Shown here: positions 22,308-46,314 of the stretch, piece after piece
Numbering within the stretch: position 1 is the stretch's first letter
Layout of the letters: every line of letters starts with the position of its first letter
Position numbers and translations under genes: made by a program
Origin: Bacteroidota bacterium
GTDB taxonomy: Bacteria; Bacteroidota; Ignavibacteria; UBA10030
Reading direction: 5' to 3'
Assembly: GCA_040901865.1 (NCBI GenBank)
Contig: JBBDYD010000137.1
Coordinates: forward strand, 13,089 to 77,088
Length of the DNA stretch: 64,000 nucleotides
The notes under the pieces: generated by a model
Seen by the model: the letters and a program-made list of their open reading frames with translations, nothing else
Told to the model about the DNA's origin: nothing
Database searches by the model: none

Positions 22308-23951
22308 TCAGAGCCTGATAATCTGATGTTTGAACTTGTCGATGACCAATTCGCCGCGTAGCCAGCGGAGAAACTCGAGCCCGTACTTATTGAGGAAATG
22401 CAGGATATTAAGTTCCCGTTCCTGAAAATTCGAGCCGGGAAATACGTGGTTCGCAGCCTTTTCCACCTGTCGAATGGCGACTTCGTTCTGGCGTTTTTGA
22501 GCGGCAACCGTTTTTTGCCTGATCGCTTCGAGTTGAAAATCGATCTTACTCTTAGCCGTATCCAGCGCGCCAGCAAGGGTGGGATCAATCTTGATCAACC
22601 CGGCACGTAATGACTCAAGCGTTTCTGTTATCGACCCCCCAGTCCCCCCGAATAACTCCTCGAGTTTGACCGACGAGGAATGCTCAGCAACCCTCTGCTT
22701 CACCAATTCAACATCGCGGAAAAAATCGGAGAGGGACAACTGATATCTTGTGAAGACTTTCTCCACTTTTTCCTCCACGATTGACGCGCTTGCGCGTGGA
22801 TAGAGAACAGGTGCCGGAATACTGAACTCGGCGTAGACCGGTTTCAACTGGGCAAAATACGATAGTTCTCCCGGCCCGGCGACGTACGCGATGGTGGGGA
22901 GGAGCGAATCTTGACAAATGGGTCTGAGGACGACATTCGGACTGAAGAGTTCAGGTTTTTCATCCGTGAGTTTGATAAGTTCATCTTTCGTAAACTGTTG
23001 CCTGCTATTCTTCAATCCAAATCCTGTTGATTTTGGCTCGATAAGATAGCGTCCTGCGTTATGAAAGAGGAAAAGGTTCACCGGTTTTGGTTTAATCTGT
23101 GCGTGATATTGTTTTTCCACCTCTACGCTTTGGTCAACGACAAGCTGGCAGGTCCGGGGTGTTTGCTCTAATTCTTTCCGGAAAACCGGCGACAACAGTT
23201 TCTTGAGTTGCGGATCGTTCGGATTCAAAAACACGAGGCCGGAATCCTCGAGCAGGTCGTTCATGAGATGAACGAATGCCCGGTTAAAGGTCATTCCTTT
23301 CTGATAGGCGACGCGGAAGAGTTCCATGACCTTGGGGCGGAATTCTGTGGCAGGGAGGCTGTTTTCGAGGGTCTGAAAAAGGTCGCCGATGGATTCTTGA
23401 AATTCAATCTGTCCGACGGCCCCGGGATTGCCCGTCCTGATCTTTTCGCCCGGATCGTATGTGAGGGTGAGCAGATCGTTTGACTGGTTCAACATCTTGA
23501 CGGAACCGACTTCCTCGTAATCGTGATCTTCGCCTTCCAGCCAGAACACGGGGACGAAAACGAACTCAGGGTACTGCTCCTGTAGCTTTTCGGTCAGCTT
23601 AAGGGTTGTGAGGGTCTTGTAAATGGTATAGAGGGGACCGGTAAAGAGCCCAACCTGCTGCCCGGTGACAACGGCCAACGTGTTGTCATTGCTGAGGGCA
23701 TCAATGTTTGCGAGCGTCTTCACGCCGCAATGAAAATCGCGGTTTTGAATCGAGAGGACCCGGGCGACTTCTGAACGTGGAATGGTCCTTTTCGCAACGA
23801 GGTCCAGGGCTGCTTGCCAGTGTGCCGGATCCCGGAAATTCCATGTGTAGAATTTTTTTACTTTTTCGAAATCGTTGACATAGTCGATGAAGAGGGAGGA
23901 GAACGAGGAACCATTGGAAGGGAGATCGCTGTAGTCAATCCAATTCATCAA
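22308..23951 (-). CDS. bshC: Bacillithiol biosynthesis protein BshC (putative cysteine ligase)
   Basis: 547 aa. VVTGQQVGLFTGPLYTIYK and PVFWLEGEDHD closely match the YllA/BshC signature remembered from Bacillus subtilis. Coiled-coil-like C-terminus. Confidence 0.75.
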   Translation of the reverse strand: MMNWIDYSDLPSNGSSFSSLFIDYVNDFEKVKKFYTWNFRDPAHWQAALDLVAKRTIPRSEVARVLSIQNRDFHCGVKTLANIDALSNDNTLAVVTGQQVGLFTGPLYTIYKTLTTLKLTEKLQEQYPEFVFVPVFWLEGEDHDYEEVGSVKMLNQSNDLLTLTYDPGEKIRTGNPGAVGQIEFQESIGDLFQTLENSLPATEFRPKVMELFRVAYQKGMTFNRAFVHLMNDLLEDSGLVFLNPNDPQLKKLLSPVFRKELEQTPRTCQLVVDQSVEVEKQYHAQIKPKPVNLFLFHNAGRYLIEPKSTGFGLKNSRQQFTKDELIKLTDEKPELFSPNVVLRPICQDSLLPTIAYVAGPGELSYFAQLKPVYAEFSIPAPVLYPRASASIVEEKVEKVFTRYQLSLSDFFRDVELVKQRVAEHSSSVKLEELFGGTGGSITETLESLRAGLIKIDPTLAGALDTAKSKIDFQLEAIRQKTVAAQKRQNEVAIRQVEKAANHVFPGSNFQERELNILHFLNKYGLEFLRWLRGELVIDKFKHQIIRL

Positions 23952-24109
23952 GATGCAGGTGGTTGGTGAGTGGCGCTGTTGCTAAAGTGAGAATATACGT
24001 TATAGTGCGACGAGCCGCAAGAATTGACCGGTGGCCAGAAGAGACCGCTTGAGAATGGAATTCCTCAACAGTGAAAGGAAGAGACTCATAATCATTCTCG
24101 GATTTTTTC

Positions 24110-24138
24110 TTGACAAATCAGGGTTGCTTTCCTATATT
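24110..24138 (+). promoter_or_regulatory. Sigma70-like promoter for the respiratory supercluster
   Basis: TTGACA (24110-24115), a 17-nt spacer, then TATATT (24133-24138), about 55 nt upstream of the ferredoxin ATG. Promoter consensus for this lineage is unknown. Confidence 0.45.
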
Positions 24139-24193
24139 GTCTCTGTTATAACCGCATCTCACAATCCGATTCGAGGCTACGAACGCATCGCAC

Positions 24194-24520
24194 ATGAGCG
24201 ACATTCAAGGAACAGCATCTCAAAAGCCTGTGCCCGCCGCAATACCTCCTGTCAAGAAGAAGAAAAAATCAGCTATCATCGCGGTTGTTCATCCGGAAGG
24301 GTGTACCGGGTGTGAAGTCTGTATTGAGTTTTGCCCCGTTGATTGTCTCTACAAGGTTCCCGGACCCGAAAATCCGGAAGAACATGGGTACGTGAGCATG
24401 AATGGAATCGTCATTGTCGATGAAGAGGTCTGCATCGGATGTAAGCTCTGCGCAAAGTACTGTCCGTGGGAAACTATCGACATGGTCAAGAGGGTGGAGG
24501 AGTCTGATGTCGTTGCTTAA
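24194..24520 (+). CDS. 2[4Fe-4S] ferredoxin-type protein with a Lys-rich N-terminus
   Basis: Two CxxCxxCxxxCP motifs, CTGCEVCIEFCP and CIGCKLCAKYCP. No signal peptide. First gene of the Rieske/cytochrome b module. Confidence 0.85.
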   Translation: MSDIQGTASQKPVPAAIPPVKKKKKSAIIAVVHPEGCTGCEVCIEFCPVDCLYKVPGPENPEEHGYVSMNGIVIVDEEVCIGCKLCAKYCPWETIDMVKRVEESDVVA

Positions 24521-24577
24521 CCCTCCCGTGCATTGATTTCCGACTTCTGACAGAATAGACAATCGAAGGAATGCTTC

Positions 24578-25210
24578 ATGTCGGATCAGACAACTGAGAA
24601 TGTCCAAAAGGATACCTCGTCTTCGGGCGGGGCTGGACCAAAGACCACTCCTGTAATTTCTCAAACACCACTTCCCCGAAAACCCAAGCAGGACCGTCCG
24701 GCAGATCAAGACCCCGGGATCTGGCGCACGAATCGGCGCAATGTGCTTGCCGTGACTGGATGGATGGGCTTCTTAGGATTCATTATCATTTCAACTGTTG
24801 GCGCCCTCCGGTACATGTTTCCCCGTGTCCTGTTTGAGCCGCCGACAAAATTCAAGGCCGGTTTTCCACAGGATTTCATGATCGGTGAAGTGAGTGAAAA
24901 GTACAAAGACGAAAAACGGGTCTGGATTGTCCGGGAAAAAGAAGGGTTCTATGCATTGATTTCGATCTGTACTCATCTTGGATGCACTCCGCGTTGGCTC
25001 CCGGGCGATAACAAGTTCAAATGCCCGTGCCATGGGAGCGGGTTCTACAGAACGGGAGTTAATTTTGAGGGTCCGGCTCCCCGTCCCTTGGAACGCGCAT
25101 TTATTGGCATTGCAGACGACGGGCAGTTGCAAATTGACCGTAGCGTGAAATTCCTCTATGAAAAGAATGAGTGGGGAAGAATCGGTTCGTTTCTCCCCTA
25201 CACAGGGTAA
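24578..25210 (+). CDS. Rieske [2Fe-2S] protein of a cytochrome bc/b6f-type complex
   Basis: CTHLGC and CPCHGS boxes. Twin-arginine-like TNRRNVLAV followed by a TM helix. Confidence 0.9.
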   Translation: MSDQTTENVQKDTSSSGGAGPKTTPVISQTPLPRKPKQDRPADQDPGIWRTNRRNVLAVTGWMGFLGFIIISTVGALRYMFPRVLFEPPTKFKAGFPQDFMIGEVSEKYKDEKRVWIVREKEGFYALISICTHLGCTPRWLPGDNKFKCPCHGSGFYRTGVNFEGPAPRPLERAFIGIADDGQLQIDRSVKFLYEKNEWGRIGSFLPYTG

Positions 25211-25225
25211 CTCAGGAGTGCCAGC

Positions 25226-25999
25226 ATGGCATTGATGGAACAATTTAAAAAGTCGGAATTCTATAAATCAATTTTCCGGCATTCGTACCAGGACACACAG
25301 CGAAACCGGGCGCTTCAGATTGTCGATAACGTATTTCTCCATCTCCACCCCGTTCGCGTACCCCGCCATGCGACCAACATTGGTTTCACCTGGGGCATGG
25401 GAGGCATCACCTTCCTCCTGTTCCTTGTCCTGACAATCACCGGCGTGATTCTGATGTTCTATTACCGGCCGACAGCGCAGTATGCGTATGAGGACATGAA
25501 GTACCTCATGAACGACGTTCCGTTCGGTCCGCTGATGCGGAACATGCACCGATGGGCCGCGCACGCAATGGTACTGACGGTGATGCTTCATATGTTCCGG
25601 GTCTTCCTCACCGGCTCATACAAACCACCGCGTCAATTTAACTGGATGGTCGGAGTGATCCTCCTCGTTCTCACATTGCTGCTGAGTTTCTCCGGGTACT
25701 TATTGCCCTGGGATCAGCTTGCGATCTGGGCTGTCACTGTCGGAACGAACATGGCCCGCGCGACCCCGCTGCTTGGCCATGAAGGTCCGTTTGGACCAGA
25801 GCTCGGGATGCGGATTGACAACGATGTTCGATTCGTTCTCCTCGGTGGAACCGAGGTTGGCCCCCCAACCTTGCTACGGTTCTACGTGGGACATTGTATT
25901 TTTCTTCCGTTGATTGCCGTCATTTTCATGGCAGTTCACTTCTGGAGAGTGCGCAAGGATGGCGGCATCTCAGGACCTGAATCCAAAAAGAATTTCTAA
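25226..25999 (+). CDS. Cytochrome b6-like subunit (N-terminal four-helix half of cytochrome b)
   Basis: Heme ligands [15 protein letters not shown] (H-x13-H) and [16 protein letters not shown] (H-x14-H, the b6 spacing). The C-terminal [11 protein letters not shown] resembles the b6 ending. Confidence 0.9.
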
Positions 26000-26031
26000 T
26001 CCGCTGACCAAAAGCCCGGACCGGGAACCTC

Positions 26032-26934
26032 ATGGAACAATTTCTGGAAATCATCTCGAAGCCTGACAATATTCCGATTGTCGCGCTTCTGGTAAGCGTC
26101 ATCTTCTTCTCTTGGCTGGCATGGTCAAAAGCCCGCCGCAACGATGCATTGCCGGTTCCGCTGGAAGCGACAATGGATGACAAGGTGCAGGTGTGGCCCT
26201 ATTTGGTCCGCGTCGAGTTTCTTGCAACCATTGCCGTGATGGCCGTTCTCGTTTTATGGTCGGTGTTTCTTGATGCTCCACTTGAGGAACCTGCAAACCG
26301 AGCCTTGACACCAAACCCTTCGAAGGCTCCATGGTACTTTCTCGGCCTCCAGGAACTCCTGGTTTACTTCGATCCCTGGATTGCGGGCGTCGTGCTTCCA
26401 ACGCTCATTATCGTAGGCCTGATGGCGATCCCGTACATTGATATCAACGAAAAAGGAAACGGGTATTATACGTTTAAGGATCGCAAGTTTTCGATACTGG
26501 TGTTTGCGTTCGGATTTATCGTGTTATGGGTCGCTCTGATCGTCTTGGGAACTTTTATGCGCGGTCCGGGATGGAATTTCTTCCTGCCATGGGAAAAATG
26601 GGATCCCCATTATATCGGCGTTCTCACGAATGTGGATCTTTCGGAACTTCTGGGAATGCCAACGCGATTGCCTGACAACACGCTGAATCCCGCGGCTATG
26701 ATCTTTGGCGCAGTGGTTGTCATCGGATACTATGCCATCGGACCGATTTACTGGATCTTGAAGCGAAAGAACGAGTTGATGCAGAACCTGGGGGTTGTAC
26801 GATACGCGATCGTTTCGTTCCTCCTTCTGAGCATGGGAGGCGTTCTGATCAAAATCCTTCTGCGTCTTGCCCCGACTGCGCTCGGTATGAATCCTGTGAA
26901 ATATGTCTGGGTTACTCCCTGGTTCAACATCTAG
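26032..26934 (+). CDS. Subunit-IV-like C-terminal half of cytochrome b, with extra helices
   Basis: SKAPWYFLGLQELL aligns to the PEWYF...Q.L Qo motif region of subunit IV. 300 aa, so longer than a canonical subunit IV. Confidence 0.8.
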   Translation: MEQFLEIISKPDNIPIVALLVSVIFFSWLAWSKARRNDALPVPLEATMDDKVQVWPYLVRVEFLATIAVMAVLVLWSVFLDAPLEEPANRALTPNPSKAPWYFLGLQELLVYFDPWIAGVVLPTLIIVGLMAIPYIDINEKGNGYYTFKDRKFSILVFAFGFIVLWVALIVLGTFMRGPGWNFFLPWEKWDPHYIGVLTNVDLSELLGMPTRLPDNTLNPAAMIFGAVVVIGYYAIGPIYWILKRKNELMQNLGVVRYAIVSFLLLSMGGVLIKILLRLAPTALGMNPVKYVWVTPWFNI

Positions 26935-27059
26935 TGGTTCTTCAATTAAATAATCTTGTGTTTTCGAGAACGCGAGCACAAGTGGAAGCGGCACTAATGC
27001 CTTTTGAAAAAGCATTGAGTCTGGGCAAATGAAATTGATCGATCGAAGGAGTTCTCGAG

Positions 27060-29693
27060 ATGTTTGAGCAACGCTCTCGCATTCCGGTTGAACAGCGAAG
27101 CTACGGCCGATTTTACATTGCATTCAGCGCGATTCTGTTCCTCGGCACTGTCTGGGCTGTTTGGGATGAAGTGACGGTCCGTCGCCCGTGGAAAGATTAC
27201 CAGGAAGTGTTCTATGCAACGTTATACCAGCGGCTGGATTCACTAAAGCAAGCGGCGGTTTCGGAAATTGATTCCAGTGAAATTGCTGCCTTTGAATCCG
27301 CATTACGCGATGCGCAAGCAGCGTTGAAAACCGATGGATACCTTCAGGCCGCCGAGAAGAAGACGGCATTGCTGGGCGATCTGGAAAATGCAACCCGCGA
27401 ATGGCGATTTGCCAGAAGCAGGTCCGATGCTGCATACTACCAGTATCAAAAGACCGCCTTGTCTGGGGCGGACGCATCATCAGAAAAAGCAGAGGTGGAG
27501 CATCACGACGCACGGATTGCAGAATATGCTGCTGAGATGGCAAACCTGCAGGCACAGATTGCCGTTTATGATACGACAGTCAATATATACGTCGACGCTG
27601 TTCTCAGAGCAACGGCCGATCTTCGCGGACTCTATGTAGCAGCCGACGCCTTCAACTTGAAGCTTGAACTGGCTTCAAGGGCGCCTCGTGATATCAAACA
27701 AGTGATGTTGCCTGATTTCGAATATACTCCGTTCACAGAGATCAAAGCGCGTATCGACCGGTGTCAGACGTGTCACCTGGGCTGGGGGGAAAGCGTCATG
27801 GAGGATGCTCCCCAACCATTTACCAAACATCCGCTGCCAGAGTTGCTCGCAGTCCACAATCCGGAAACCTTCGGATGCACGCCTTGTCATCGCGGTCAGG
27901 GACCGGCCCTGACAGAGGGGTTTGCCCATGGTTTTGAGGACAAACATTGGGAAACACCAATCCTCAAAGGTGTCGAAACCTATGCGACATGCAATACATG
28001 CCATTCTGAAGAAACCGTCCTCAAACACGCGAAACCATTTACGAAGGCCAAACAAATCGTTCTGGAATCCGGTTGCTATGGATGCCATGAGATTAAGGGA
28101 TACACGAATCCTCCCAAAATCGGTCCCGTGTTGAACTCGTTGACCTCGAAAACAACGCCGGAATGGATCTATCGTTGGGTCAAGAATCCAAAAGACTACA
28201 ATCCGCACACGAGAATGCCGAATTTTGAATTTGGAGACAGCGATGCCGAGGCAATCACAGCGTATCTCGTGAAGATCGGACGAGAATCGGACTTCGCTCC
28301 GCAACGGTCCCGCGGCTCATTTGCTGGCGGAAGTGCGTCCCGCGGCAAGGAACTTTTCGAAACAGTTGGATGTCAGGCTTGCCACGTAGCAGGGGGATAC
28401 ACCGCGGTGCGGGATGAACGAGGGACAAGCTATGATGTTGCCCCGGAACTTACGCGCGTTGGCAGCAAGGTGACCGCGGACTGGCTCTTTGATTGGCTCA
28501 AGAATCCCCGCCATTACAATCCGACAACCAGAATGCCAAGCCTCCGCCTCACAGACGACGAAGCACGGAACCTTGTTGCATTCCTCGTGTTGCAAAAGGA
28601 CGAGCGAAGCCTGCCTCGGGTAACGCTTGACCTTGGAAGTCCGGAGAAGATCGCGCGCGGGGATGCTTTGATCCGTGAATTCGGATGCGCTGGGTGCCAT
28701 GAGATCAAGGGAATGGAGCGGGAGGGGAAAGTCAGTGTTGATCTTTCCGACTTCGGCAGAAAGAAAGTCGAGCAAATGGATTTCGGAAACACCCTGCCGC
28801 TCGGTAAGAATACGGATATTGAGTACCAGAAGAATGCGGATGGCACGGTATCGGTCAAGCACACCTGGGCTGGCTGGGTGAAGGGGAAATTGAACAATTC
28901 GAGATTGTACATAACAGAACGAATTGCGCAAAAGATGCCGATCTTTTCGTTTAATGATGAGGAAATAGCGCTGATCCGAACGTTTTTGGTCAGCATGACC
29001 CGAGATGCTCCGCTACCCACGTACCAACATGATTTTACAAAGCGGGTGAAGGACCTTGAAGCCGGGAGGCGACTGTCTGTACAGTATAATTGCATCCAGT
29101 GTCATTCGCTCGAGGATCGGGGAGCATTCATGACAGTGAAATACGAGGATCCCGGGCTCGGACCTCCTCCGCTTCCGGAAAGCCAGGGAGCAAAAGTGCA
29201 GGAACAATGGCTCCATAGCTTCCTCAGGAATCCGACGACCGTTCGCCCGTGGCTGAAACTCCGGATGCCGACGTTTCAGTTGTCCGACCAGGAAATCGGC
29301 ACAATCCAAAAGTACTTCCTTGCAATGTCAAATCAGGATTTTGTAATTCGGGACTATGCCGCCACGACTGTGGAAGCGAAGTACGCGAGCCCGGGGAGAA
29401 AGCTGTTTGAGCTCTATCAGTGCGCCAAGTGTCATCCCTCCGGCACGGCGGACCTGTCGGAACTTTCAGCTTCGGATCTCGCGCCGGACCTTTCGCTGGC
29501 GGCCTCACGTCTCAAGCCGGAGTGGATTGTTGAATGGATTATCGATCCCCAAAAGTTGCAACCGGGAACGCGCATGCCCACGTTCTTTTATGACGGAGAG
29601 GCACCCGATCAGGAAACGCTCGGCGGAGATGTTCGGGAACAGGCGAAGGCTTTGTCAGCTCACATCTGGAATCTCGGGAAACGAAATCGTTAA
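27060..29693 (+). CDS. Membrane-anchored octaheme c-type cytochrome (877 aa)
   Basis: AAGGAG SD. N-terminal TM helix YIAFSAILFLGTVWAVW. Eight CxxCH motifs: CQTCH, CTPCH, CNTCH, CYGCH, CQACH, CAGCH, CIQCH, CAKCH. Confidence 0.85.
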   Translation: MFEQRSRIPVEQRSYGRFYIAFSAILFLGTVWAVWDEVTVRRPWKDYQEVFYATLYQRLDSLKQAAVSEIDSSEIAAFESALRDAQAALKTDGYLQAAEKKTALLGDLENATREWRFARSRSDAAYYQYQKTALSGADASSEKAEVEHHDARIAEYAAEMANLQAQIAVYDTTVNIYVDAVLRATADLRGLYVAADAFNLKLELASRAPRDIKQVMLPDFEYTPFTEIKARIDRCQTCHLGWGESVMEDAPQPFTKHPLPELLAVHNPETFGCTPCHRGQGPALTEGFAHGFEDKHWETPILKGVETYATCNTCHSEETVLKHAKPFTKAKQIVLESGCYGCHEIKGYTNPPKIGPVLNSLTSKTTPEWIYRWVKNPKDYNPHTRMPNFEFGDSDAEAITAYLVKIGRESDFAPQRSRGSFAGGSASRGKELFETVGCQACHVAGGYTAVRDERGTSYDVAPELTRVGSKVTADWLFDWLKNPRHYNPTTRMPSLRLTDDEARNLVAFLVLQKDERSLPRVTLDLGSPEKIARGDALIREFGCAGCHEIKGMEREGKVSVDLSDFGRKKVEQMDFGNTLPLGKNTDIEYQKNADGTVSVKHTWAGWVKGKLNNSRLYITERIAQKMPIFSFNDEEIALIRTFLVSMTRDAPLPTYQHDFTKRVKDLEAGRRLSVQYNCIQCHSLEDRGAFMTVKYEDPGLGPPPLPESQGAKVQEQWLHSFLRNPTTVRPWLKLRMPTFQLSDQEIGTIQKYFLAMSNQDFVIRDYAATTVEAKYASPGRKLFELYQCAKCHPSGTADLSELSASDLAPDLSLAASRLKPEWIVEWIIDPQKLQPGTRMPTFFYDGEAPDQETLGGDVREQAKALSAHIWNLGKRNR

Positions 29694-29733
29694 TGGACCT
29701 TTTTTTTCATTTACATGAAGGAGTGCGAATACG

Positions 29734-30420
29734 ATGAAGGCAATAGGAATCGTTCTGTTGATTGTGGTGGTTGGGATTTCGACGATGTTTGCAGGCGACG
29801 TCACCGGAAAGGTCAAATTCGGTGGAACCGCGCCGAAGGCGGCAAGATTGCGAATGGACGCCGATCGGTTCTGCAAGGCCGCCCATAAAGCTCCCGTAAC
29901 AAGCGAGGAAGTAGTTCTGAACAAGAATGGCACGCTAAAAAACGTCCTCGTGTACGTCAAAGGGCCTGTGAGCGGAAAGTTCACAGCTCCAAAGGACAAG
30001 GCACTGTTTGACCAGCAAGGATGTCTCTATCTTCCGCATGTCCTTGGCGTTCAGACTGGGCAGCAGGTGGAAATACGCAATAGTGACAACACGCTCCACA
30101 ACGTGCACACCCAATCGGACAAAAATCCATCATTTAACGCAGGTCAGCCCATTAAGGGTCATAAGCTTACCAAAACGTTTGAAAAAGCCGAGACCTTTCG
30201 CGTAAAGTGTGATGTCCACTCGTGGATGGGTGCTTACATTGGCGTGTTTGACCATCCGTTCTTCGCGGTAACCGGGGATGACGGAAGTTTCACGTTAAAG
30301 GGAGTGCCTGCGGGAGAGTATACCGTTGAGGCGTGGCATGAAAAGTATGGTTTAAAAACCATGAAGGTCACCGTCCCGGCCTCAGGCAAGCAAACGGTGG
30401 ATTTCAGCTACTCCAACTAG
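29734..30420 (+). CDS. Exported cupredoxin (type-1 copper) protein with a C-terminal CarboxypepD_reg-like beta-sandwich
   Basis: Signal/anchor MKAIGIVLLIVVVGISTMFA. Candidate T1Cu ligands HNVH ... CDVHSWM (C-x2-H-x2-M, amicyanin-like spacing). C-terminal GDDGSFTLKGVPAGEYTVEAWHEKYG. Confidence 0.6.
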   Translation: MKAIGIVLLIVVVGISTMFAGDVTGKVKFGGTAPKAARLRMDADRFCKAAHKAPVTSEEVVLNKNGTLKNVLVYVKGPVSGKFTAPKDKALFDQQGCLYLPHVLGVQTGQQVEIRNSDNTLHNVHTQSDKNPSFNAGQPIKGHKLTKTFEKAETFRVKCDVHSWMGAYIGVFDHPFFAVTGDDGSFTLKGVPAGEYTVEAWHEKYGLKTMKVTVPASGKQTVDFSYSN

Positions 30421-30447
30421 CAGCCCACAGCACATAAGGAGCACACA

Positions 30448-32325
30448 GTGCAGAATGTCGCAACGGCGCCGCACCACGGTGAGGCTGCTCACCACGAAGA
30501 GCGCGCAAGTTTTTGGCGAACATATGTCTTCTCGGTCGATCACAAAGTCATCGGCATCCAGTACATGATGACAGGATTGATTTTTCTGTTTCTCGGCTTC
30601 ACACTGATGATGCTGATGCGATGGCAGATTGCCTATCCCACGAAGTCGATTCCGGGAGAATGGTTCACCCTCCTTCCCGGAGCAATTGCGCTAATCTCCA
30701 TAATTGTCGGATTGATAAGCAAACGGAAGCTCACGATTCTCTTCGGGGTTCTCTTTGGCGGAATCGCCTGGCTTGTTTGGTCCATGGTGTCCGACGAGAC
30801 GCTGTTTCCCCAAGGGATTATGCTTCCGGAGCTCTATAACTCCTTTGGCGCTATGCACGGAACCATCATGGTGTTCCTTGGGGTAGTCCCCATTGCAGTC
30901 GGTGGATTTGGCAACTATGTGGTTCCCTTGCAGGTCGGCGCTCCCGATATGGCTTTTCCGAAACTCAATATGATGAGCTACTGGAGCTATTTTGCCGGTG
31001 GCATCGTCATGTTGTCGAGTTTCTTTATTCCCGGAGGCGCGGCAAATTCCGGATGGACATCGTATCCTCCGTTGTCCGATATCGCAACCACCGGACAGAC
31101 TGTTTGGCTCTTCGGAATGGTATTCCTCATCACGTCGTCTCTCCTGGGATCCGTCAACTTCATTGTGACGATCGTCCAACTCAGAGCGAAGGGCCTGACG
31201 TTCATGCGGCTCCCGTTCTTTGTGTGGGCTCAGCTGGTAACTTCGTTTCTCCTTCTTCTTGCGTTTCCACCTCTTGAAGCCGCTGCGGTTCTTCAGTTAA
31301 TGGATCGCCTTGCCGGTACGAGCTTCTTTTTGCCGAGCGGCCTTGTGATCAGCGGACAGGTTCTCGATGTCTCGGGCGGTGGAAGCCCGCTCCTTTGGCA
31401 GCATCTCTTTTGGTTCCTTGCCCATCCGGAGGTGTACGTGCTGATCCTCCCGGCTATGGGAATCATAGCAGAGGTCATTGCCAACAATACAAGGAAGCCG
31501 CTTTGGGGATATCGCTCGCTCGTCTTCGCAGCTGTGTTTCTGGGATTCATGTCGTTTATCGTCTGGGCCCATCATATGTTCATGACAGGAATGGGAACGG
31601 TGATCAGCACGTTCTTTCAAACCACAACGATGATCATCTCCATCCCGTCAGTCATCATTCTGAGCGCTCTGATCATTTCCCTGTGGGGCGGATCAATTCG
31701 CTTTACGGTTCCAATGTTGTTTGCGGTCGCCTTTCTCCCCATGTTTGGTATTGGCGGACTCACGGGGCTTCCTCTCGGACTTGCGCCTACGGACATCCAT
31801 CTTCATGACACCTATTATGTCATCGGCCATTTTCACTATGTCGTGGCTCCTGGTACGATTTTCGCCCTGTTCGCCGGAATCTATTATTGGTACCCAAAAG
31901 CAACGGGAAGGCTGATGAATACCACGTTGGGAAAGATCCATTTCTGGGGTTCTCTTGCGTGTATGAATGGAGTCTTCTTTCCCATGTTAATCCAGGGGCT
32001 GGCTGGGGTTTCCCGGAGGTTATATGACGGCGGCGCCCAATATGCCCATGCACAGAATGTTCTCCAATGGAATGAAGTAATGTCGGTTTCCGCATGGCTT
32101 CTCGCAATTTTTCAATTGCCATTCATCTTCAACTTCTTCTGGAGCCTGAAAAAGGGGAAAGCGGTGGAATCCGACAATCCCTGGGGAGCTACGACACTCG
32201 AATGGCAAACACCAACGCCACCACCGCATGGGAATTTTTTAAAGGTTCCCGAAGTCTTTAGGGGCCCCTATGAATACAGCGTCCCAAATGCTCCGAAAGA
32301 CTTTCTCGCTCAGAACACTCCATAA
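30448..32325 (+). CDS. ctaD: Heme-copper oxidase subunit I (A-type cytochrome c oxidase)
   Basis: GTG start after AAGGAG. GNYVVPLQVGAPDMAFPKLN, AHPEVYVLILPAMG (helix VI Glu), HHMFMTG, HFHYV motifs. Confidence 0.95.
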   Translation: MQNVATAPHHGEAAHHEERASFWRTYVFSVDHKVIGIQYMMTGLIFLFLGFTLMMLMRWQIAYPTKSIPGEWFTLLPGAIALISIIVGLISKRKLTILFGVLFGGIAWLVWSMVSDETLFPQGIMLPELYNSFGAMHGTIMVFLGVVPIAVGGFGNYVVPLQVGAPDMAFPKLNMMSYWSYFAGGIVMLSSFFIPGGAANSGWTSYPPLSDIATTGQTVWLFGMVFLITSSLLGSVNFIVTIVQLRAKGLTFMRLPFFVWAQLVTSFLLLLAFPPLEAAAVLQLMDRLAGTSFFLPSGLVISGQVLDVSGGGSPLLWQHLFWFLAHPEVYVLILPAMGIIAEVIANNTRKPLWGYRSLVFAAVFLGFMSFIVWAHHMFMTGMGTVISTFFQTTTMIISIPSVIILSALIISLWGGSIRFTVPMLFAVAFLPMFGIGGLTGLPLGLAPTDIHLHDTYYVIGHFHYVVAPGTIFALFAGIYYWYPKATGRLMNTTLGKIHFWGSLACMNGVFFPMLIQGLAGVSRRLYDGGAQYAHAQNVLQWNEVMSVSAWLLAIFQLPFIFNFFWSLKKGKAVESDNPWGATTLEWQTPTPPPHGNFLKVPEVFRGPYEYSVPNAPKDFLAQNTP

Positions 32326-32339
32326 TTCCGGATACTTGC

Positions 32340-32930
32340 ATGCAAATTCCTTATACAGTTGCTGCCCGTCCTGACACGGGACTTCACAACTCCAAGCTGG
32401 GTATTTGGCTGTTTCTGGCTTCCGAAGTGATGCTGTTCGGGGCCCTCTTTTCGTCGTACATCCTCTTGCGCGTGGCCGCCCCCGAATGGCCGCATGGATC
32501 ACTGCTTCTGAATGTTCCTCTCGCATTCCTCAACACCGTTATTCTCATCGGATCGAGCGTGACGATGGTTATGTCCTGGGCATCGTTGATGATGAAGGAC
32601 TTTCAGAAGTACCGACGTTACATGGGACTGACAATCCTCTGCGGGTTCGGCTTTTTGATTGTCAAAGGCTTCGAATACACCGCAAAATTCTCTCATGGGA
32701 TCTTCCCGAGTGAGGACCTCTTTTACGCAACCTACTTCACGCTCACAGGGCTGCATGGTCTTCACGTCATCGGTGGGATTATCGTCAATACGTACTTCTG
32801 GGGACCCGGCAGCCGCATGTGGAAAACAGAACCCGAAAGATTCACAAACAGGGTGGAGGTGGCCGGGCTTTATTGGCACTTTGTCGATCTTGTATGGATT
32901 TTCTTGTTTCCCACTCTCTACCTTTTGTAG
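32340..32930 (+). CDS. ctaE: Cytochrome c oxidase subunit III
   Basis: 196 aa, five helices. LASEVMLFGALF, YFTLTGLHGLHVIGG and YWHFVDLVW motifs. Confidence 0.9.
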   Translation: MQIPYTVAARPDTGLHNSKLGIWLFLASEVMLFGALFSSYILLRVAAPEWPHGSLLLNVPLAFLNTVILIGSSVTMVMSWASLMMKDFQKYRRYMGLTILCGFGFLIVKGFEYTAKFSHGIFPSEDLFYATYFTLTGLHGLHVIGGIIVNTYFWGPGSRMWKTEPERFTNRVEVAGLYWHFVDLVWIFLFPTLYLL

Positions 32931-32938
32931 GAGAATCT

Positions 32939-33238
32939 ATGGAACACACCACCACCGAAGATATCAAGAAGCACGTTCGGAGCTACATTCTTGTTTTTGT
33001 TGCGCTTCTTGCTCTCACCGTGATTACAGTCGGAGTATCCTACCTGCACCTCAGCGTTGTGCCGGCGGTCATTCTGGCTCTTATGATTGCATCCATCAAG
33101 GGAGCACTTGTTGCTTCATATTTCATGCACCTGATTTCCGAAAAGAAGCTGGTATACTTCACACTGGTTCTCACCGCCGTATTTCTCATCACGCTCGTGG
33201 CTCTCCCTCTCCTCGGGTACCACGACAACATTGAATAG
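32939..33238 (+). CDS. Cytochrome oxidase small subunit IV (CoxD/CyoD-like)
   Basis: Internal ATG 32939 after GTAGGAG. 99 aa, three helices. HVRSYILVFVALLALTVITV and ALVASYFMHL are typical of the prokaryotic COX4 family. Confidence 0.7.
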   Translation: MEHTTTEDIKKHVRSYILVFVALLALTVITVGVSYLHLSVVPAVILALMIASIKGALVASYFMHLISEKKLVYFTLVLTAVFLITLVALPLLGYHDNIE

Positions 33239-33240
33239 CC

Positions 33241-33447
33241 ATGTCACTGAAATCATTTCATGTTTTCTTTATTTGCGCGTCGATTCTCTTTCTGATCGGA
33301 TTTGGCGCGTGGTTCCTTGTCACTGAGCCTGTATCTGCGAGGGCTATCAACGTTCTGGGAGGCTTGATGTGTTTCAGCCTTGCGGGCGGCATGGGGGTGT
33401 ACGCCGTACGGTTTCTGCAGAAGTTCAAATCTTTGACAAACCAATGA
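33241..33447 (+). CDS. Small two-helix membrane protein, unknown function
   Basis: 68 aa. Starts 3 nt after the subunit IV stop and overlaps the next ORF (ATGA). Hydrophobic segments FFICASILFLIGFGAWFLV and LGGLMCFSLAGGMGVYAV. Confidence 0.4.
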   Translation: MSLKSFHVFFICASILFLIGFGAWFLVTEPVSARAINVLGGLMCFSLAGGMGVYAVRFLQKFKSLTNQ

Positions 33448-33713
33448 ACAAACAACGTCTTCGGCGGATGGCAGCGAGGGCATTTTCGGATGCACTTCTC
33501 CTGATAGTGTTCGTTGAATCCCAGCTTCTGGCCTGCCCTGTATGCTATGGTGACAAAAATTCAGCGGAGGTGGAAGGAGCCCGTTGGGCCATTCTCTTCC
33601 TCTTAGGAGTGACCGGAACTGTCCTCAGCGGCGTTGTGGCCTTTGTGCTGCACGTCCGGCGCCGATCACGAAAGGCCCAGGATGGGACTGTCGATGTAAG
33701 AAGTTCAAACTAG
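33444..33713 (+). CDS. Small membrane protein with a periplasm-facing CxxC
   Basis: 89 aa from internal ATG 33444. N-terminal signal/anchor, ACPVCYGD motif, second helix WAILFLLGVTGTVLSGVVAFVL, basic tail. Confidence 0.4.
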   Translation: MNKQRLRRMAARAFSDALLLIVFVESQLLACPVCYGDKNSAEVEGARWAILFLLGVTGTVLSGVVAFVLHVRRRSRKAQDGTVDVRSSN

Positions 33714-33727
33714 GAGAGTCTTGATCT

Positions 33728-34669
33728 ATGAATGATTTTCTCGGTCTTCCCCTTGACGCTTCGGCTCACGGACCCGAAATCGATGCCATGATGGGAGTCA
33801 TCCATTGGCTGATGTTCGCCCTGTTCATTGGCTGGGGAATATTCTTTACGTATGTGCTCATTCGGTTCCGACGTTCCCGTCAAGCGTCAGCTGATTATGC
33901 AGGCGTGAAAAGCCACACGTCAACGTATCTTGAAATTGGTGTTGCACTCATCGAGGTTGTACTCATCATTGGTTTTGCCATCCCCTTGTGGGCAAAGCGC
34001 GTCAACGAGTTTCCACCCGACAGCGATGCCGTTGTTGTGAGGGTTGTTGCCGAGCAATTTGCCTGGAATGTCCACTACCCCGGCCCCGATGGGTTATTCG
34101 GACCAACAGACATTTCTCTCGTGAGTGCCGATAACCCGGTTGGACTCGACCGCTCCGACCTGGACGCGAAAGACGACATTGTGACAATTAACCAGCTCGT
34201 ACTGCCTGTTGGAAAACCGGTGATTGTACGGCTTAGCTCAAAGGATGTTATCCATTCCTTTGGTGTTCCCTTGCTGCGAGTGAAGCAAGATGTCATTCCG
34301 GGACAAGTCATTCCTGTATGGTTTGAGCCGGTTGAAACCACAGAACAGATTCAGTTGAAACTGGCGAGGCAGTATTCCCTTTACAATTCCATAGTCAATT
34401 TTTCCACCATGGTTGTTATGGAAGAATACGCCGGGAAGGATAGTACGGTGATTGCCCCGAAGGGCACCGTTTTGTTCCCCGATGTTGTCGATCAACTGCT
34501 TCAGGCAGGGTTCACCGAAGTGCTTGCCTCTCCCGAAACGCCAATGGAGATTGCCTGCGCGCAGTTGTGCGGGCTGGGACACTACCGGATGCGGGCATCG
34601 GTGAGTATAAAATCGATGGAGGAGTACCAGGCCTGGCTGGCAGAAGAGGCTTCTTACCTGCAACCGTGA
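33728..34669 (+). CDS. ctaC: Cytochrome c oxidase subunit II (CuA, no fused cytochrome c domain)
   Basis: Two N-terminal helices. CuA ligands DVIHSF ... CAQLCGLGHYRM. AGGAG SD. Confidence 0.85.
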   Translation: MNDFLGLPLDASAHGPEIDAMMGVIHWLMFALFIGWGIFFTYVLIRFRRSRQASADYAGVKSHTSTYLEIGVALIEVVLIIGFAIPLWAKRVNEFPPDSDAVVVRVVAEQFAWNVHYPGPDGLFGPTDISLVSADNPVGLDRSDLDAKDDIVTINQLVLPVGKPVIVRLSSKDVIHSFGVPLLRVKQDVIPGQVIPVWFEPVETTEQIQLKLARQYSLYNSIVNFSTMVVMEEYAGKDSTVIAPKGTVLFPDVVDQLLQAGFTEVLASPETPMEIACAQLCGLGHYRMRASVSIKSMEEYQAWLAEEASYLQP

Positions 34670-34689
34670 ACGATCGTGAGAGGTAGAGG

Positions 34690-34727
34690 AACTGCCTGCC
34701 TTTCCGGAGGGCAGTTTCTTTTTTTTT
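34690..34727 (+). terminator. Intrinsic terminator or attenuator between coxB and ctaA
   Basis: aactgcc ... ggcagtt stem followed by tcttttttttt, located 10 nt before the ctaA ATG. Confidence 0.6.
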
Positions 34728-34736
34728 GAGGATGCG

Positions 34737-35756
34737 ATGAACAAAGCTTTACATCGGTTTGCCGTCGTTACTGCGTGCTGTACCTTCCTGCTCATAGTAG
34801 CAGGCGGAATGGTGACAAGCACGGGATCTGGACTTGCGGTGCCCGATTGGCCCCTGTCGTACGGTCAGATCATGCCACCGATGGTGGGCGGCATCTTCTA
34901 TGAACATGGCCACCGTATGATTGCCTCATTTGTCGGGTTTCTTACGGTGATCCTTGCGTTCTGGCTGTGGAGGAGAGATCCCAGACGGTGGATGCGTGTC
35001 CTTGGGCTCATCGCCCTTACTGCTGTTATCATCCAGGGGATTCTTGGCGGTCTCACCGTACTCTATCTTTTGCCGGTGGCAATTTCCGTAAGCCATGCGG
35101 CCCTGGCGCAATCGTTCTTTTGTCTTACCGCCCTCATTGCACTCTTTACTTCACAATGGTGGTATAAGGCAACTCCTGTTCTTGAGGAATTGACTGCCCG
35201 CCGGGTTTTCCAAGCGAGTGTCCTTCTCGTGATTTCCGTGTTTCTGCAGTTGATTCTCGGGGCCGTGATGCGTCATACAGGCTCCGGGTTGGCAATCCCG
35301 GATGTGCCTTTTGCGTATGGCCAAATTCTGCCATCACTTGCCCCTGAGTCCCTGCAGCAGTATAATGACATCCAGATTAAGACTGATATGCGACTGGTGG
35401 CTGATGGTCCACTTACTGCTTTTCAGGTCGGAGTTCACTTTTTTCACCGCCTCTGGGCCTTGGCTGTTTTCGGGATTGCGATCTTTGCTTTTGTCCGGTT
35501 TCGCTCTGAATCGGGAATACCGGGCAGACTTCGTTTTCTTTCTGGAAGCATCCTATTCCTTGTGTTTGTCCAGATCGCTCTTGGCGTGCTCACCGTGCTG
35601 ACGCGCAAAAATGAAATTATGACGACAGTGCATGTTGCAACAGGGGCCGTCACACTCGTTGTGAGCGTCCTTCTTGTTCTGCATGTTGCGAAACTCGGGG
35701 GTGCGACGCTTTCCCGGTTTCCGTTGATTCGCTTCCGAAAGGAGGCTCTCGTATGA
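34737..35756 (+). CDS. ctaA: Heme A synthase (COX15/CtaA)
   Basis: VAGGMVTSTGSGLAVPDWPLSYG, YEHGHRM and further His-containing helices (FHRLWA, HVATG). Eight predicted helices. Confidence 0.85.
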   Translation: MNKALHRFAVVTACCTFLLIVAGGMVTSTGSGLAVPDWPLSYGQIMPPMVGGIFYEHGHRMIASFVGFLTVILAFWLWRRDPRRWMRVLGLIALTAVIIQGILGGLTVLYLLPVAISVSHAALAQSFFCLTALIALFTSQWWYKATPVLEELTARRVFQASVLLVISVFLQLILGAVMRHTGSGLAIPDVPFAYGQILPSLAPESLQQYNDIQIKTDMRLVADGPLTAFQVGVHFFHRLWALAVFGIAIFAFVRFRSESGIPGRLRFLSGSILFLVFVQIALGVLTVLTRKNEIMTTVHVATGAVTLVVSVLLVLHVAKLGGATLSRFPLIRFRKEALV

Positions 35757-36679
35757 ACGATCAAATCGCTTCGCGCATAAAAGAGCAACCAGCGATGGGG
35801 CGATCTGCAATATTGGATTTTATCGAGTTGATGAAGCCGGAACTCACAGGATTGTCCGTTCTCACTGCCCTCTGCGGGTATTATCTTGGCGCTGTGACGG
35901 TTAACGGCGTGGACTTTTTCCTGACCGGCCTTGGAACCCTTTTGCTTGGAGGGGGAGCGGGAGCATTAAACCAGTATGCCGAGCGCTCGTTTGATCTGCT
36001 GATGAAGCGTACCGAGCGGAGACCTCTGCCCGCAGGACGATTGAACCCTGACCAGGTGCTGTTCTTTGGGATACTCACCAGCACCGTGGGATTGCTCATC
36101 TTGTTCCTTGGCTTGAACGTCCTGACGGGGGTCCTCGGCGTTGCAACATTTGTTCTCTACTTGTTTGTCTACACTCCTCTGAAACGAAAGACCTGGACCG
36201 CCACGCTCGTAGGTGCGATTCCTGGTGCTCTCCCACCCGTGATAGGATGGACAGCAGCCGGTGGATCTTTGGACCTGTCAGCGGGTATCCTTTTTCTTAT
36301 CCTCTTCCTCTGGCAGATTCCTCACTTTCTTTCTCTCGCGTGGATGTATCGCAAAGATTATGCTCGTGCGGGATACAAAATGCTCACGGTCGTCGATGAG
36401 TCCGGTACAAGGGCGGCAATGCAGAGCCTTCTCTATTGTTCTGCCCTGATTCCCGCGGCGCTCGCTATGACTTTCGTTGGCACAACGGGAACGATGTATG
36501 GAATTGGATCCGTCCTCCTTGGTACTGCGTTCCTTCTGTTTGCTGTTCAGTTCCGAAAGTACACGCGCAAGTCATTGGGCGAACAGGTCCTCGTGAATCA
36601 GCATGCGCGTTTACTCTTCTTCGCTTCCCTGATGTACCTGCCAGCGCTCTTTTTTCTCATGACGGTCGATAAGGTGTGA
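35753..36679 (+). CDS. ctaB: Protoheme IX farnesyltransferase (heme O synthase)
   Basis: UbiA-family motifs NQYAERSFDLLMKRTERRPLPAGRL and YRKDYARAGYKML. Confidence 0.93.
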   Translation: MNDQIASRIKEQPAMGRSAILDFIELMKPELTGLSVLTALCGYYLGAVTVNGVDFFLTGLGTLLLGGGAGALNQYAERSFDLLMKRTERRPLPAGRLNPDQVLFFGILTSTVGLLILFLGLNVLTGVLGVATFVLYLFVYTPLKRKTWTATLVGAIPGALPPVIGWTAAGGSLDLSAGILFLILFLWQIPHFLSLAWMYRKDYARAGYKMLTVVDESGTRAAMQSLLYCSALIPAALAMTFVGTTGTMYGIGSVLLGTAFLLFAVQFRKYTRKSLGEQVLVNQHARLLFFASLMYLPALFFLMTVDKV

Positions 36680-42160: not shown

Positions 42161-43192
42161 CTAAAACGCGTCCAGCAATGCATTGAAAGGGTGGATCTTC
42201 AGCGTGCAAACACACTGATGGCACTCCTTCAGCCGATACGCCCGTACATCGGTTCTTGTTTCCCTGATCTCCGGTGTGTTAAGCAGATCCGGGAGCGGCC
42301 GCGATCTTACGTTCCCGAACGAGGGAAGGAAATAGCAAGGCAAAACATCTCCCGTTGAACTGATTACCAACGAAACAGACGGTGCGTTGCACTCGTTGCG
42401 TGGAAACGGAGAAATTCCCTGATGGGCTTCGAAATACTCAACCAGATGGATCATTTTTCCGGGAGTCTCAGCAATGAAATGGGTGAGAAATTCGGATTTC
42501 CGCTTTTGGAGCAAATCCTTCACCGATTCCCTGAATACCGCGCACTCTTCAGGATCCAAAAGGATGTCCACCGAAGGTGCAACAGGCCCGACTCGATCTC
42601 TGTGAAATGCATCTGATTGGACGTCCGCTGCGAGGAAGGAAAGCCTGTCGATTCCAAGCCCCTTCGCGAAAACGACCATCTCGTCCAGCTTTCTGAAATT
42701 CCGTCGTTGAACGACAAACCGGACGGAAAGAGATGGTTTGTTGGTGTTTCCGACCATCGCCTCAATACCCCTTACAATCTGATCAAAGCATTCTAATCCG
42801 CGTATCGAATTATGAGTCATGGCATCCGGCCCGTCAAGGGAGATGATGACCTCTTCGAAAAAGGGGAGGATTTCCTTCGCTCGTTTTTCAAGCAATAGCC
42901 CGTTGGTCAGAAGTGTTTGCCGGACACCGGTTCGCTCAGCAATTCTGCAGATTTCCAGAAAGTCTTTTCGCATGAGAGGTTCCCCACCGGAATAAACAAC
43001 GCGACGCAGGCCCATTTGCTGGAGATGCTTGAAAAGCTCCTTGTATTCATCAACAGTCATCTCGCTCGGAAGGGGATCGCGATATGAACAGGTCATGCAG
43101 CGAAGGTTGCAGCCGGCGGTCACGTAGAGAATGACGATCGGAAGAGAATGCGCCCGGGTGCCAACAGTATTCAGAAAGGCCCGATAGTTCAT
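42161..43192 (-). CDS. Radical SAM enzyme with a C-terminal SPASM/twitch-like Cys-rich domain
   Basis: CNLRCMTC (C28/C32/C35, CX3CX2C), SGGEPLM glycine-rich motif. The C-terminus has CNAPSVSLVISSTGDVLPC (CX12GX4C) and CHQCVC. Confidence 0.8.
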   Translation of the reverse strand: MNYRAFLNTVGTRAHSLPIVILYVTAGCNLRCMTCSYRDPLPSEMTVDEYKELFKHLQQMGLRRVVYSGGEPLMRKDFLEICRIAERTGVRQTLLTNGLLLEKRAKEILPFFEEVIISLDGPDAMTHNSIRGLECFDQIVRGIEAMVGNTNKPSLSVRFVVQRRNFRKLDEMVVFAKGLGIDRLSFLAADVQSDAFHRDRVGPVAPSVDILLDPEECAVFRESVKDLLQKRKSEFLTHFIAETPGKMIHLVEYFEAHQGISPFPRNECNAPSVSLVISSTGDVLPCYFLPSFGNVRSRPLPDLLNTPEIRETRTDVRAYRLKECHQCVCTLKIHPFNALLDAF

Positions 43193-43257
43193 TAAAGGCT
43201 TGTTTGTTTGTCCTTTGAGTCGAGGATGTCAGTCATTGAGCGGACAGGGCGCTGTTT

Positions 43258-44655: not shown

Positions 44656-44661
44656 GGTCGT

Positions 44662-46275: not shown

Positions 46276-46314
46276 GCAGTTCAATGGAACGGAATTATCG
46301 TAGGAGGAATGCGT

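Follow-up and report, generated by a model that had tools for sequence, protein, structure and literature searches.

A dicluster ferredoxin gene at the head of a predicted APWY-clade Rieske/cytochrome b operon in the Bacteroidota/Ignavibacteria/Kapabacteria branch: a candidate redox partner of cytochrome b

The exchange of electrons between low-potential cytoplasmic carriers and b6-type complexes is a question for both photosynthetic cyclic electron flow and the complexes of anaerobic ammonium-oxidizing (anammox) bacteria, and a ferredoxin-to-quinone route on the cytoplasmic (negative, N) side of the membrane has long been proposed for cytochrome b6f. The same question is raised by a locus in a Bacteroidota bacterium (GenBank assembly GCA_040901865.1, contig JBBDYD010000137.1), of which we analysed a stretch of 64,000 nucleotides (nt), referred to below as the window. 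Here a gene for a 2[4Fe-4S] (dicluster) ferredoxin stands immediately before the genes for a Rieske [2Fe-2S] protein, a split b6-type cytochrome b and a long subunit IV-like protein. Is this ferredoxin a part or partner of the Rieske/cytochrome b complex, or does its gene merely share an operon with it? The upstream ferredoxin, which is specific to the Bacteroidota/Ignavibacteria/Kapabacteria branch of these complexes, is unreported insofar as none was found in the literature searched, the coverage of which was incomplete.

Seven of nine ferredoxin homologues whose surroundings were looked up (55-79% identity) are encoded directly upstream of a Rieske-cytochrome b-subunit IV gene set, or one Rrf2-family gene away from it, and the linkage holds in at least seven different upstream contexts. 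The upstream neighbours are unrelated to one another (BshC, a pyrroloquinoline quinone (PQQ) propeller protein, an FlgD_ig protein, 3-deoxy-D-arabino-heptulosonate 7-phosphate (DAHP) synthase and ATP synthase epsilon), which rules out chance adjacency of the ferredoxin and Rieske genes. When metagenomes were scanned with the Rieske protein and then by tblastn, the ferredoxin was present in all of the approximately 28 loci with Rieske identity of at least 67% and upstream sequence available, and two further lineages picked via cytochrome b also carry it. The ferredoxin homologues come from metagenome-assembled genomes of Bacteroidota, Ignavibacteriota and Kapabacteria. A cytochrome b profile scan of one genome per species yielded 80 further loci (L001-L080), and tblastn with the window proteins detected no ferredoxin directly upstream of Rieske in any of them, the weak matches elsewhere being generic Fe-S genes or anammox flavoproteins; in other phyla, about 100 orthologous operons do without the gene. 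The initial annotation had asked whether the ferredoxin gene is conserved beside orthologous Rieske/cytochrome b genes: it is so in most operons of the Bacteroidota/Ignavibacteria/Kapabacteria branch, though not in one sister subclade, and not in the operons of the other phyla.

The sister subclade lies close to the window. In the closest genome (L001, cytochrome b 89% identical) the bacillithiol gene bshC, which is also the divergent upstream neighbour of the window's operon, is followed directly by the Rieske gene without a ferredoxin gene, and the sister group L120-L126 (cytochrome b 86-87% identical, bshC upstream) has none either. In the two members examined, L120 (2677-3567) and L122 (2674-3528), the Rieske protein carries a cytoplasmic Pro/Ala/Lys-rich N-terminal extension of about 130 amino acids (aa) before the twin-arginine translocation (TAT) motif and membrane anchor. 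In a neighbour-joining tree of cytochrome b the ferredoxin-positive loci fall within one monophyletic Bacteroidota-group clade, in which the Kapabacteria-type branch separates first and the ferredoxin-less group is nested inside; the tree, though crude, favours one gain of the ferredoxin gene followed by loss over repeated gain. Two variants of the arrangement were met in the branch. In L171 (5001-5791), a more distant lineage, an Rrf2-family regulator gene lies between ferredoxin and Rieske, with ATP synthase beta/epsilon and cox/SCO1 genes immediately upstream; in L174 (2898-7630) the order ferredoxin-Rieske-cytochrome b-subunit IV is followed by a major facilitator superfamily (MFS) transporter gene instead of a multihaem cytochrome c gene, and the first ferredoxin motif reads CxxCxxCxxxCE. 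An extra open reading frame (ORF) of 134 aa without Pfam hit was also observed between the genes for cytochrome b and for subunit IV in L173 (4964-5368).

The upstream sequence places the gene within the operon. All 15 ferredoxin-positive loci that were aligned share the promoter motif TTCTTGACAA-N-TATATT, the rest of the 230 nt upstream being unalignable, and in the ferredoxin-less L001 the same motif stands directly before the Rieske gene. It follows that the ferredoxin gene was added, or removed, between promoter and Rieske. No terminator-like site was detected in 23800-25300, nor a promoter-like site between the ferredoxin and Rieske genes. These two genes are 57 nt apart in the window and 15-17 nt apart in L084 and L087, and cytochrome b starts 15 nt after the Rieske gene ends. 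Judged from these sequence features, the ferredoxin gene belongs to the Rieske/cytochrome b transcription unit.

The protein was described in the initial annotation as soluble-looking, with a run of five lysines and without a signal peptide, and the closer look bears this out. Its cluster motifs CTGCEVCIEFCP and CIGCKLCAKYCP form two CxxCxxCxxxCP boxes (Pfam Fer4, 46 bits against a cutoff of 21), KKKKK occupies residues 21-25, and the protein has neither a hydrophobic segment nor a twin-arginine motif or other export signal, so that it is expected to be cytoplasmic. It is a plain dicluster protein without an extra domain, in which a variable Pro/Ala-rich N-terminus and the oligo-lysine stretch precede an acidic core (15 Asp/Glu against 5 Lys/Arg), and an insert of about 20 aa separates one cluster motif from the other. 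All eight cysteines of the clusters are kept without exception in 48 homologues, and the Lys-rich tether is nearly invariant in the family. An AlphaFold2 model (predicted local distance difference test score, pLDDT, 58, with disordered tails) was too weak for a fold search. A special kinship to PscB/PsaC, which have Pro/Ala/Lys-rich N-termini, was considered and dropped, as the phmmer matches in the PDB were of a generic dicluster kind (FwdF, NuoI, and PsaC at about 1e-5), with PscB absent among the 60 best-scoring matches listed. Two more distant homologues (54-56% identity), whose inter-cluster segment differs, are encoded away from any Rieske gene and adjoin genes for a thioredoxin-reductase (TrxR)-like flavoprotein or an aminotransferase. 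The nearest of these unlinked relatives, P0120 (54% identity), adjoins a 319-aa thioredoxin-reductase-like flavoprotein in L089 (6001-7802), which may be a ferredoxin-NADP reductase partner of the ferredoxin family.

Two sets of observations bear on a partnership at the N side. Kapabacteria-type ferredoxins have a longer N-terminus that opens with a conserved PPWLR(Q/S)GA(D/E)R motif (e.g., PPWLRQGADR), and the cognate cytochromes b have a cytoplasmic Pro/Ala-rich C-terminal tail of about 90 residues ending in PPWLKK; the shared PPWL[RK] motif and the Pro/Ala-rich linkers are found in L086 (1305-1751 and 2534-3574), in L087 (6001-6438 and 7236-8267) and in proteins P0164, P0168 and P0172-P0174. 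A common Trp-Leu-basic tail motif on the same membrane side suggests a common docking or membrane-interface site. The second set comes from anammox bacteria, for whose complexes AlphaFold 3 (AF3) models predict one more haem b on the N side, where the cytochromes b of the dimer meet, with His43 (Kuste4571) or His62 (Kustd1481) as ligand, Arg247 or Arg266/Lys267 near the propionates, and contact to a ferredoxin-like domain (PMC12954380). In the Scalindua and Brocadia orthologues, where the match to the anammox numbering is exact, the modelled residues are the first His of HLHP and the RK of RVRKDGG; their counterparts in the window protein are H39, R243 and K244. All three are invariant throughout the clade.

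We propose as the most likely single explanation, at somewhat less than an even chance, that the ferredoxin is an N-side redox partner of cytochrome b, with electrons passing in one direction or the other. The ferredoxin gene would have been placed between the operon promoter and Rieske in the Bacteroidota/Ignavibacteria/Kapabacteria branch, and being behind the operon promoter the ferredoxin is therefore made together with the complex. It would act at the cytoplasmic face of cytochrome b and exchange electrons with the N-side haems, possibly via an extra dimer-interface haem held by the conserved HLHP histidine, in the role modelled for the C-terminal dicluster domain of the anammox NAD(P) oxidoreductase. 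What the sequences show are the identities of the genes, their motifs, the structure of the operon, and how far the ferredoxin gene is conserved and distributed; that the ferredoxin binds to the complex, that the extra haem exists and which way the electrons run, we infer. As the host is expected to be an aerobic heterotroph, electron input, from reduced ferredoxin via the b haems to the menaquinone pool, is mildly favoured over the reverse, in which bifurcation would drive ferredoxin reduction; such input would resemble the ferredoxin:quinone route proposed for b6f. A stronger version, with the tethered ferredoxin as a genuine N-side subunit that injects or withdraws low-potential electrons via an additional interfacial haem at the HLHP histidines, strikes us as unlikely.

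A number of observations weigh against the proposed partnership. HLHP and RVRK are equally conserved in about 100 operons without an N-side partner gene and therefore do not predict the ferredoxin; the ferredoxin-less sister subclade is close (cytochrome b 86-89% identical). No N-side residue of cytochrome b, subunit IV or Rieske co-varies with the presence of the ferredoxin, the only residues kept in both ferredoxin-positive groups and changed in the ferredoxin-less sister being T83 of cytochrome b and A174 of Rieske, both on the opposite (P) side. No ferredoxin-Rieske fusion turned up when a concatenated query was searched and its best 120 matches were inspected. The unlinked ferredoxins (54-56% identity) share the Lys-rich stretch, so the tether is not specific to the operon-linked form, and all ferredoxin-positive operons lack the haem-cn cysteine, haem cn being the presumed ferredoxin entry point in b6f. 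The extra haem is an AF3 prediction in another organism, the ferredoxin is associated with the complex through its gene only, and the AlphaFold2 models of cytochrome b and ferredoxin, being of low confidence, have no bearing on docking. Of the dedicated N-side ferredoxin in the initial annotation there remains a gene that is conserved, co-oriented and behind the operon promoter in one branch of the clade; fusions and co-varying N-side residues were looked for and did not turn up.

The same observations can be read to mean that the ferredoxin is an ordinary soluble carrier, co-expressed with the complex without docking to it and serving another enzyme such as CtaA or ferredoxin-dependent metabolism in general. 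This is the main rival, which we judge somewhat unlikely. The operon also contains CtaA and CtaB, and eukaryotic Cox15 needs a ferredoxin; the close subclade that is without the gene shows no detectable N-side change in its cytochrome b, subunit IV or Rieske protein, the unlinked ferredoxins with the same Lys-rich stretch have a TrxR-like flavoprotein or an aminotransferase as neighbour, and the missing fusion proteins point the same way. Against this reading, the ferredoxin gene always adjoins Rieske (at a distance of one Rrf2 gene in L171) and not ctaA or the oxidase genes. Even where the arrangement is broken up it stays there: L174 keeps the ferredoxin without a cytochrome c or oxidase gene in the approximately 3 kb sequenced past subunit IV, and L171 keeps it at Rieske with the oxidase genes upstream and ATP synthase genes between. 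The PPWL tails common to the Kapabacteria-type ferredoxin and cytochrome b likewise suggest a common site of action.

If the ferredoxin does meet the b haems, it could instead be the acceptor of the low-potential electron in a quinol-based bifurcation. With menaquinol as substrate of a high-potential Rieske protein, the second electron would be reducing enough to pass through the b haems to ferredoxin, a scheme proposed to account for the NAD(P)H made by anammox complexes. The Rieske box CPCHGSGF of the window is the Ser/Phe type of Kustd1480 (+335 mV), a Mid+ to high potential is predicted for Rieske proteins of the APWY clade (PMC4122944), and the clade includes the anammox complexes for which the scheme was put forward. 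But most clade members share the Rieske type and have no N-side acceptor gene, and the host, with its aerobic oxidase operon, probably lives as a heterotroph that can obtain reduced ferredoxin in other ways, so that we regard this role as quite improbable. Least probable of all, and very unlikely in our estimate, is a non-catalytic regulatory or assembly function, either redox sensing with an Rrf2-type regulator or Fe-S insertion into Rieske before TAT export. The Rrf2-family gene between ferredoxin and Rieske in L171 would fit the former and the first-cistron position before Rieske is compatible with a maturation role; Rrf2, however, occurs in just one sampled lineage, the ferredoxin has no domain beyond its two clusters, and the Rieske proteins of about 100 related operons mature without it.

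Should the ferredoxin be such a genuine N-side subunit, non-photosynthetic relatives of green sulfur bacteria would possess a natural b6-type complex that is ferredoxin:quinone-coupled and compact in its genetics, and a simple bacterial model would be at hand both for the anammox NAD(P)-linked complexes and for the long-sought ferredoxin-quinone reductase route of b6f. If the ferredoxin docks, the locus would offer the simplest system for N-side electron entry or exit, with the lineages that lost the gene as natural controls; if it does not, there remains a respiratory operon that is well conserved and belongs to a clade already described, in a group (Bacteroidota/Ignavibacteria) which is mostly described as using alternative complex III.

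The operon extends well beyond these four genes (Table 1), whose ORFs were confirmed as initially annotated. All genes in 24110-36679 are co-oriented, and the region is the front of one long predicted operon that would encode a complete menaquinol-to-oxygen branch. The octahaem cytochrome c is probably the electron acceptor of the Rieske protein, and the cupredoxin-like gene downstream of cytochrome c is conserved in many phyla. On its gene content we assign the locus to the APWY clade, as a menaquinol:cytochrome c/cupredoxin oxidoreductase of the respiratory chain that shares one operon with an A-type oxidase. Elsewhere in the window, a cluster on the minus strand (42161-50969) encodes a radical S-adenosylmethionine (SAM)/SPASM protein, an arylsulfotransferase-like protein, a double methyltransferase and two B12-binding radical SAM proteins, and may be a peptide- or lipid-modification locus.

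Table 1. Positions of the promoter-like site and genes of the operon in the window
Feature	Position	Strand	Basis or remark
Sigma-70-type promoter-like site, TTGACA-17-TATATT	24110..24138	+	11/12 consensus positions; 55 nt before ferredoxin start codon
Cytoplasmic 2[4Fe-4S] ferredoxin, 108 aa (predicted)	24194..24520	+	Pfam Fer4 and cluster motifs
Rieske [2Fe-2S] protein	24578..25210	+	Pfam Rieske; CTHLGC, CPCHGSGF
b6-type cytochrome b, four helices, 257 aa	25226..25999	+	PF00033; alignment to 1VF5
Long subunit IV-like protein, 300 aa, six predicted helices	26032..26934	+	Pfam Cytochrom_B_C
Membrane-anchored octahaem cytochrome c, 877 aa, 8 CxxCH	27060..29693	+	
Membrane-anchored cupredoxin-like protein, C159-x2-H-x2-M, CarboxypepD_reg domain	29734..30420	+	
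Haem-copper oxidase genes, whole block	30448..34669	+	
CoxI	30448..32325	+	
CoxIII	32340..32930	+	
CoxIV	32951..33238	+	
Two small overlapping hydrophobic ORFs, 68 and 114 aa, between CoxIV and CoxII	33241..33713	+	Without Pfam match
CoxII with CuA motif	33728..34669	+	
Haem A synthase CtaA	34737..35756	+	
Haem O synthase CtaB	35753..36679	+	

The core proteins have the features of a b6-type complex with particular deviations. In the Rieske protein (Pfam Rieske, 39 bits against a cutoff of 20.3) the cluster motifs lie at residues 131 (CTHLGC) and 149 (CPCHGSGF), and a cytoplasmic N-terminal extension of about 50 aa precedes a TAT-like RRNVLAV motif and a membrane anchor. Its second box is of the Ser/Phe type, a pair classed as "Mid+" by Kao & Hunte (PMC4122944) and also present in Kustd1480, for which +335 mV was measured. 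Cytochrome b (PF00033, 151 bits) finds its best solved-structure match in 1VF5 (E 1e-47). The split b6-type organization with an H-x14-H pair on helix D, noted at the outset, is confirmed: 13 residues separate the haem ligands H108 and H122 and 14 separate H223 and H238, as in b6, and both bis-His pairs, on helices B and D, are invariant in 18 homologues. The suspected loss of the cysteine for haem ci (haem cn) is likewise real, because Gly57 of FTWGMGG stands opposite Cys35 of cytochrome b6 in the phmmer alignment to 1VF5; the sole cysteine of the window protein is C224, and the CxGG motif for covalent haem cn is absent. The N-side motifs HLHP and RVRK, both invariant, lie at residues 39-42 and 241-244; an AlphaFold2 model of cytochrome b built on an 18-sequence alignment (pLDDT 41) was too poor to show where HLHP lies with respect to the dimer interface. 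Subunit IV (Cytochrom_B_C, 26.3 bits against a cutoff of 20.7) has six hydrophobic segments and carries the APWY motif of the quinol oxidation (Qo) site at residue 99, within SKAPWYFLGLQELL.

The homologues place these deviations in a wider clade. The shared gene order, namely Rieske, cytochrome b, long subunit IV, large multihaem cytochrome c and often a cupredoxin-like protein, recurs in Bacteroidota, candidate division KSB1, Nitrospinota, Poribacteria, Acidobacteriota, Binatia, Deltaproteobacteria, Planctomycetota including anammox genera, and others. Cytochrome b identity is 61-89% across the 80 scanned loci and 61-72% to Deltaproteobacteria, Planctomycetota, Nitrospinota and Acidobacteriota, and in the neighbour-joining tree of the loci gathered here the window protein groups with homologues of Deltaproteobacteria, Planctomycetes and Nitrospirae/Nitrospinae type. 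Motifs were counted over 150 loci: APWY is present in 134 of the 134 related loci in which the Qo motif is readable, HxHP before helix A in 148, and the haem-cn position is Cys in 63 and Gly in 83, so that loss of the haem-cn cysteine is, on these counts, a polymorphism within the clade. The constancy of APWY, like that of the ferredoxin cysteines, shows that the features noted at the outset are no accident of the sequence. The length of subunit IV, which the initial annotation singled out as exceeding the canonical one, is usual here too, the protein usually aligning over residues 2-300 in many phyla. As far as the alignments go, the split b6-like cytochrome b, long subunit IV, APWY motif and octahaem cytochrome c are all typical of the described clade.

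That clade has been named before. APWY is one of six major Qo patterns, and the "APWY clade" of mixed phyla was defined by Kao & Hunte in 2014, who predicted Mid+ to high-potential Rieske proteins for it and knew of no characterised complex from it when they wrote (PMC4122944). The APWY reading in the initial annotation was thus right, and its analogy with a PPWF variant in Thermus/Deinococcus was mistaken: PPWF is restricted to Archaea, the motif of Deinococcus-Thermus being PDWY (PMC4122944). The APWY clade falls within the taxonomically mixed subfamily G of Dibrova et al., which consists mostly of short cytochromes b and in which CxGG is variably retained; the missing haem-cn cysteine has also been discussed there (PMC5600118). 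The window shares with the APWY clade the motif itself, the short split cytochrome b with separate subunit IV and the Ser/Phe "Mid+" Rieske protein; it differs from the published clade in its host, as Bacteroidota/Ignavibacteria-type hosts are unlisted there, and in the upstream ferredoxin gene, which goes unmentioned (PMC4122944).

Among individual systems, an octahaem-cytochrome Rieske/b6-like operon is described in Nitrospina gracilis, Kuenenia stuttgartiensis and Methylomirabilis oxyfera (Lucker et al. 2013, PMC3578206). The window operon resembles the Nitrospina type in its Rieske protein, split cytochrome b, subunit IV and atypical octahaem cytochrome c, and the Nitrospinaceae loci L004-L007 align over all four. 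Nitrospina differs from the window in retaining the haem-cn cysteine (FTWCMGG) and in its want of a ferredoxin gene, and its subunit IV is without the first N-terminal helix, the alignments beginning at about residue 40-50. Of the named families, the best matches are those of the Geobacter sulfurreducens ExtOPQS complex (PMC5877670), i.e., NCBIfam NF040969, NF040970 and NF040971 (ExtP/ExtQ/ExtS), all below cutoff: cytochrome b comes closest (281.6 against 290), while subunit IV and part of cytochrome c match weakly, with scores of 62.8 against 150 and 74.9 against 100 for the other two families. Geobacter ExtQ has only 134 aa and the ext cluster is without a ferredoxin; ExtM, considered as a precedent for one, was set aside as a 12-haem cytochrome (PMC5877670). 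With cytochrome b6f the window complex has in common the split cytochrome b with H-x13-H and H-x14-H ligands and the separate subunit IV. It differs from b6f in that haem cn is absent, APWY replaces PEWY, subunit IV has six helices rather than three, an octahaem cytochrome c takes the place of cytochrome f, and the context is respiratory, beside an oxidase.

The anammox complexes Kuste4569-4574 and Kustd1480-1485 (PMC12954380) are also close, and the comparison with them drawn in the initial annotation proves apt: they have a cytochrome b of the same clade, a long subunit IV, a multihaem cytochrome c and a cytoplasmic Fe-S module encoded in the operon. Their subunit IV proteins have five helices (2025 study, PMC12954380), and their cytochrome b keeps the haem-cn cysteine that the window protein lacks. 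In the Rieske/cytochrome b operon of Candidatus Brocadia sapporoensis (L029, 9738-11711) we also observed that a gene for a GmrSD-type restriction endonuclease separates the NAD(P) oxidoreductase gene from that of subunit IV. No gene for a GltD-like flavin adenine dinucleotide (FAD)/NAD(P) oxidoreductase was found in 24194-36679 of the window. The anammox dicluster domain aligns with the full-length window ferredoxin at 36-37% identity, including the long insert; in anammox bacteria, however, this module is the C-terminal domain of a GltD-like FAD/NAD(P) flavoprotein of about 570-615 aa (L029, L072) on the N side, whereas in the window it is a free-standing ferredoxin.

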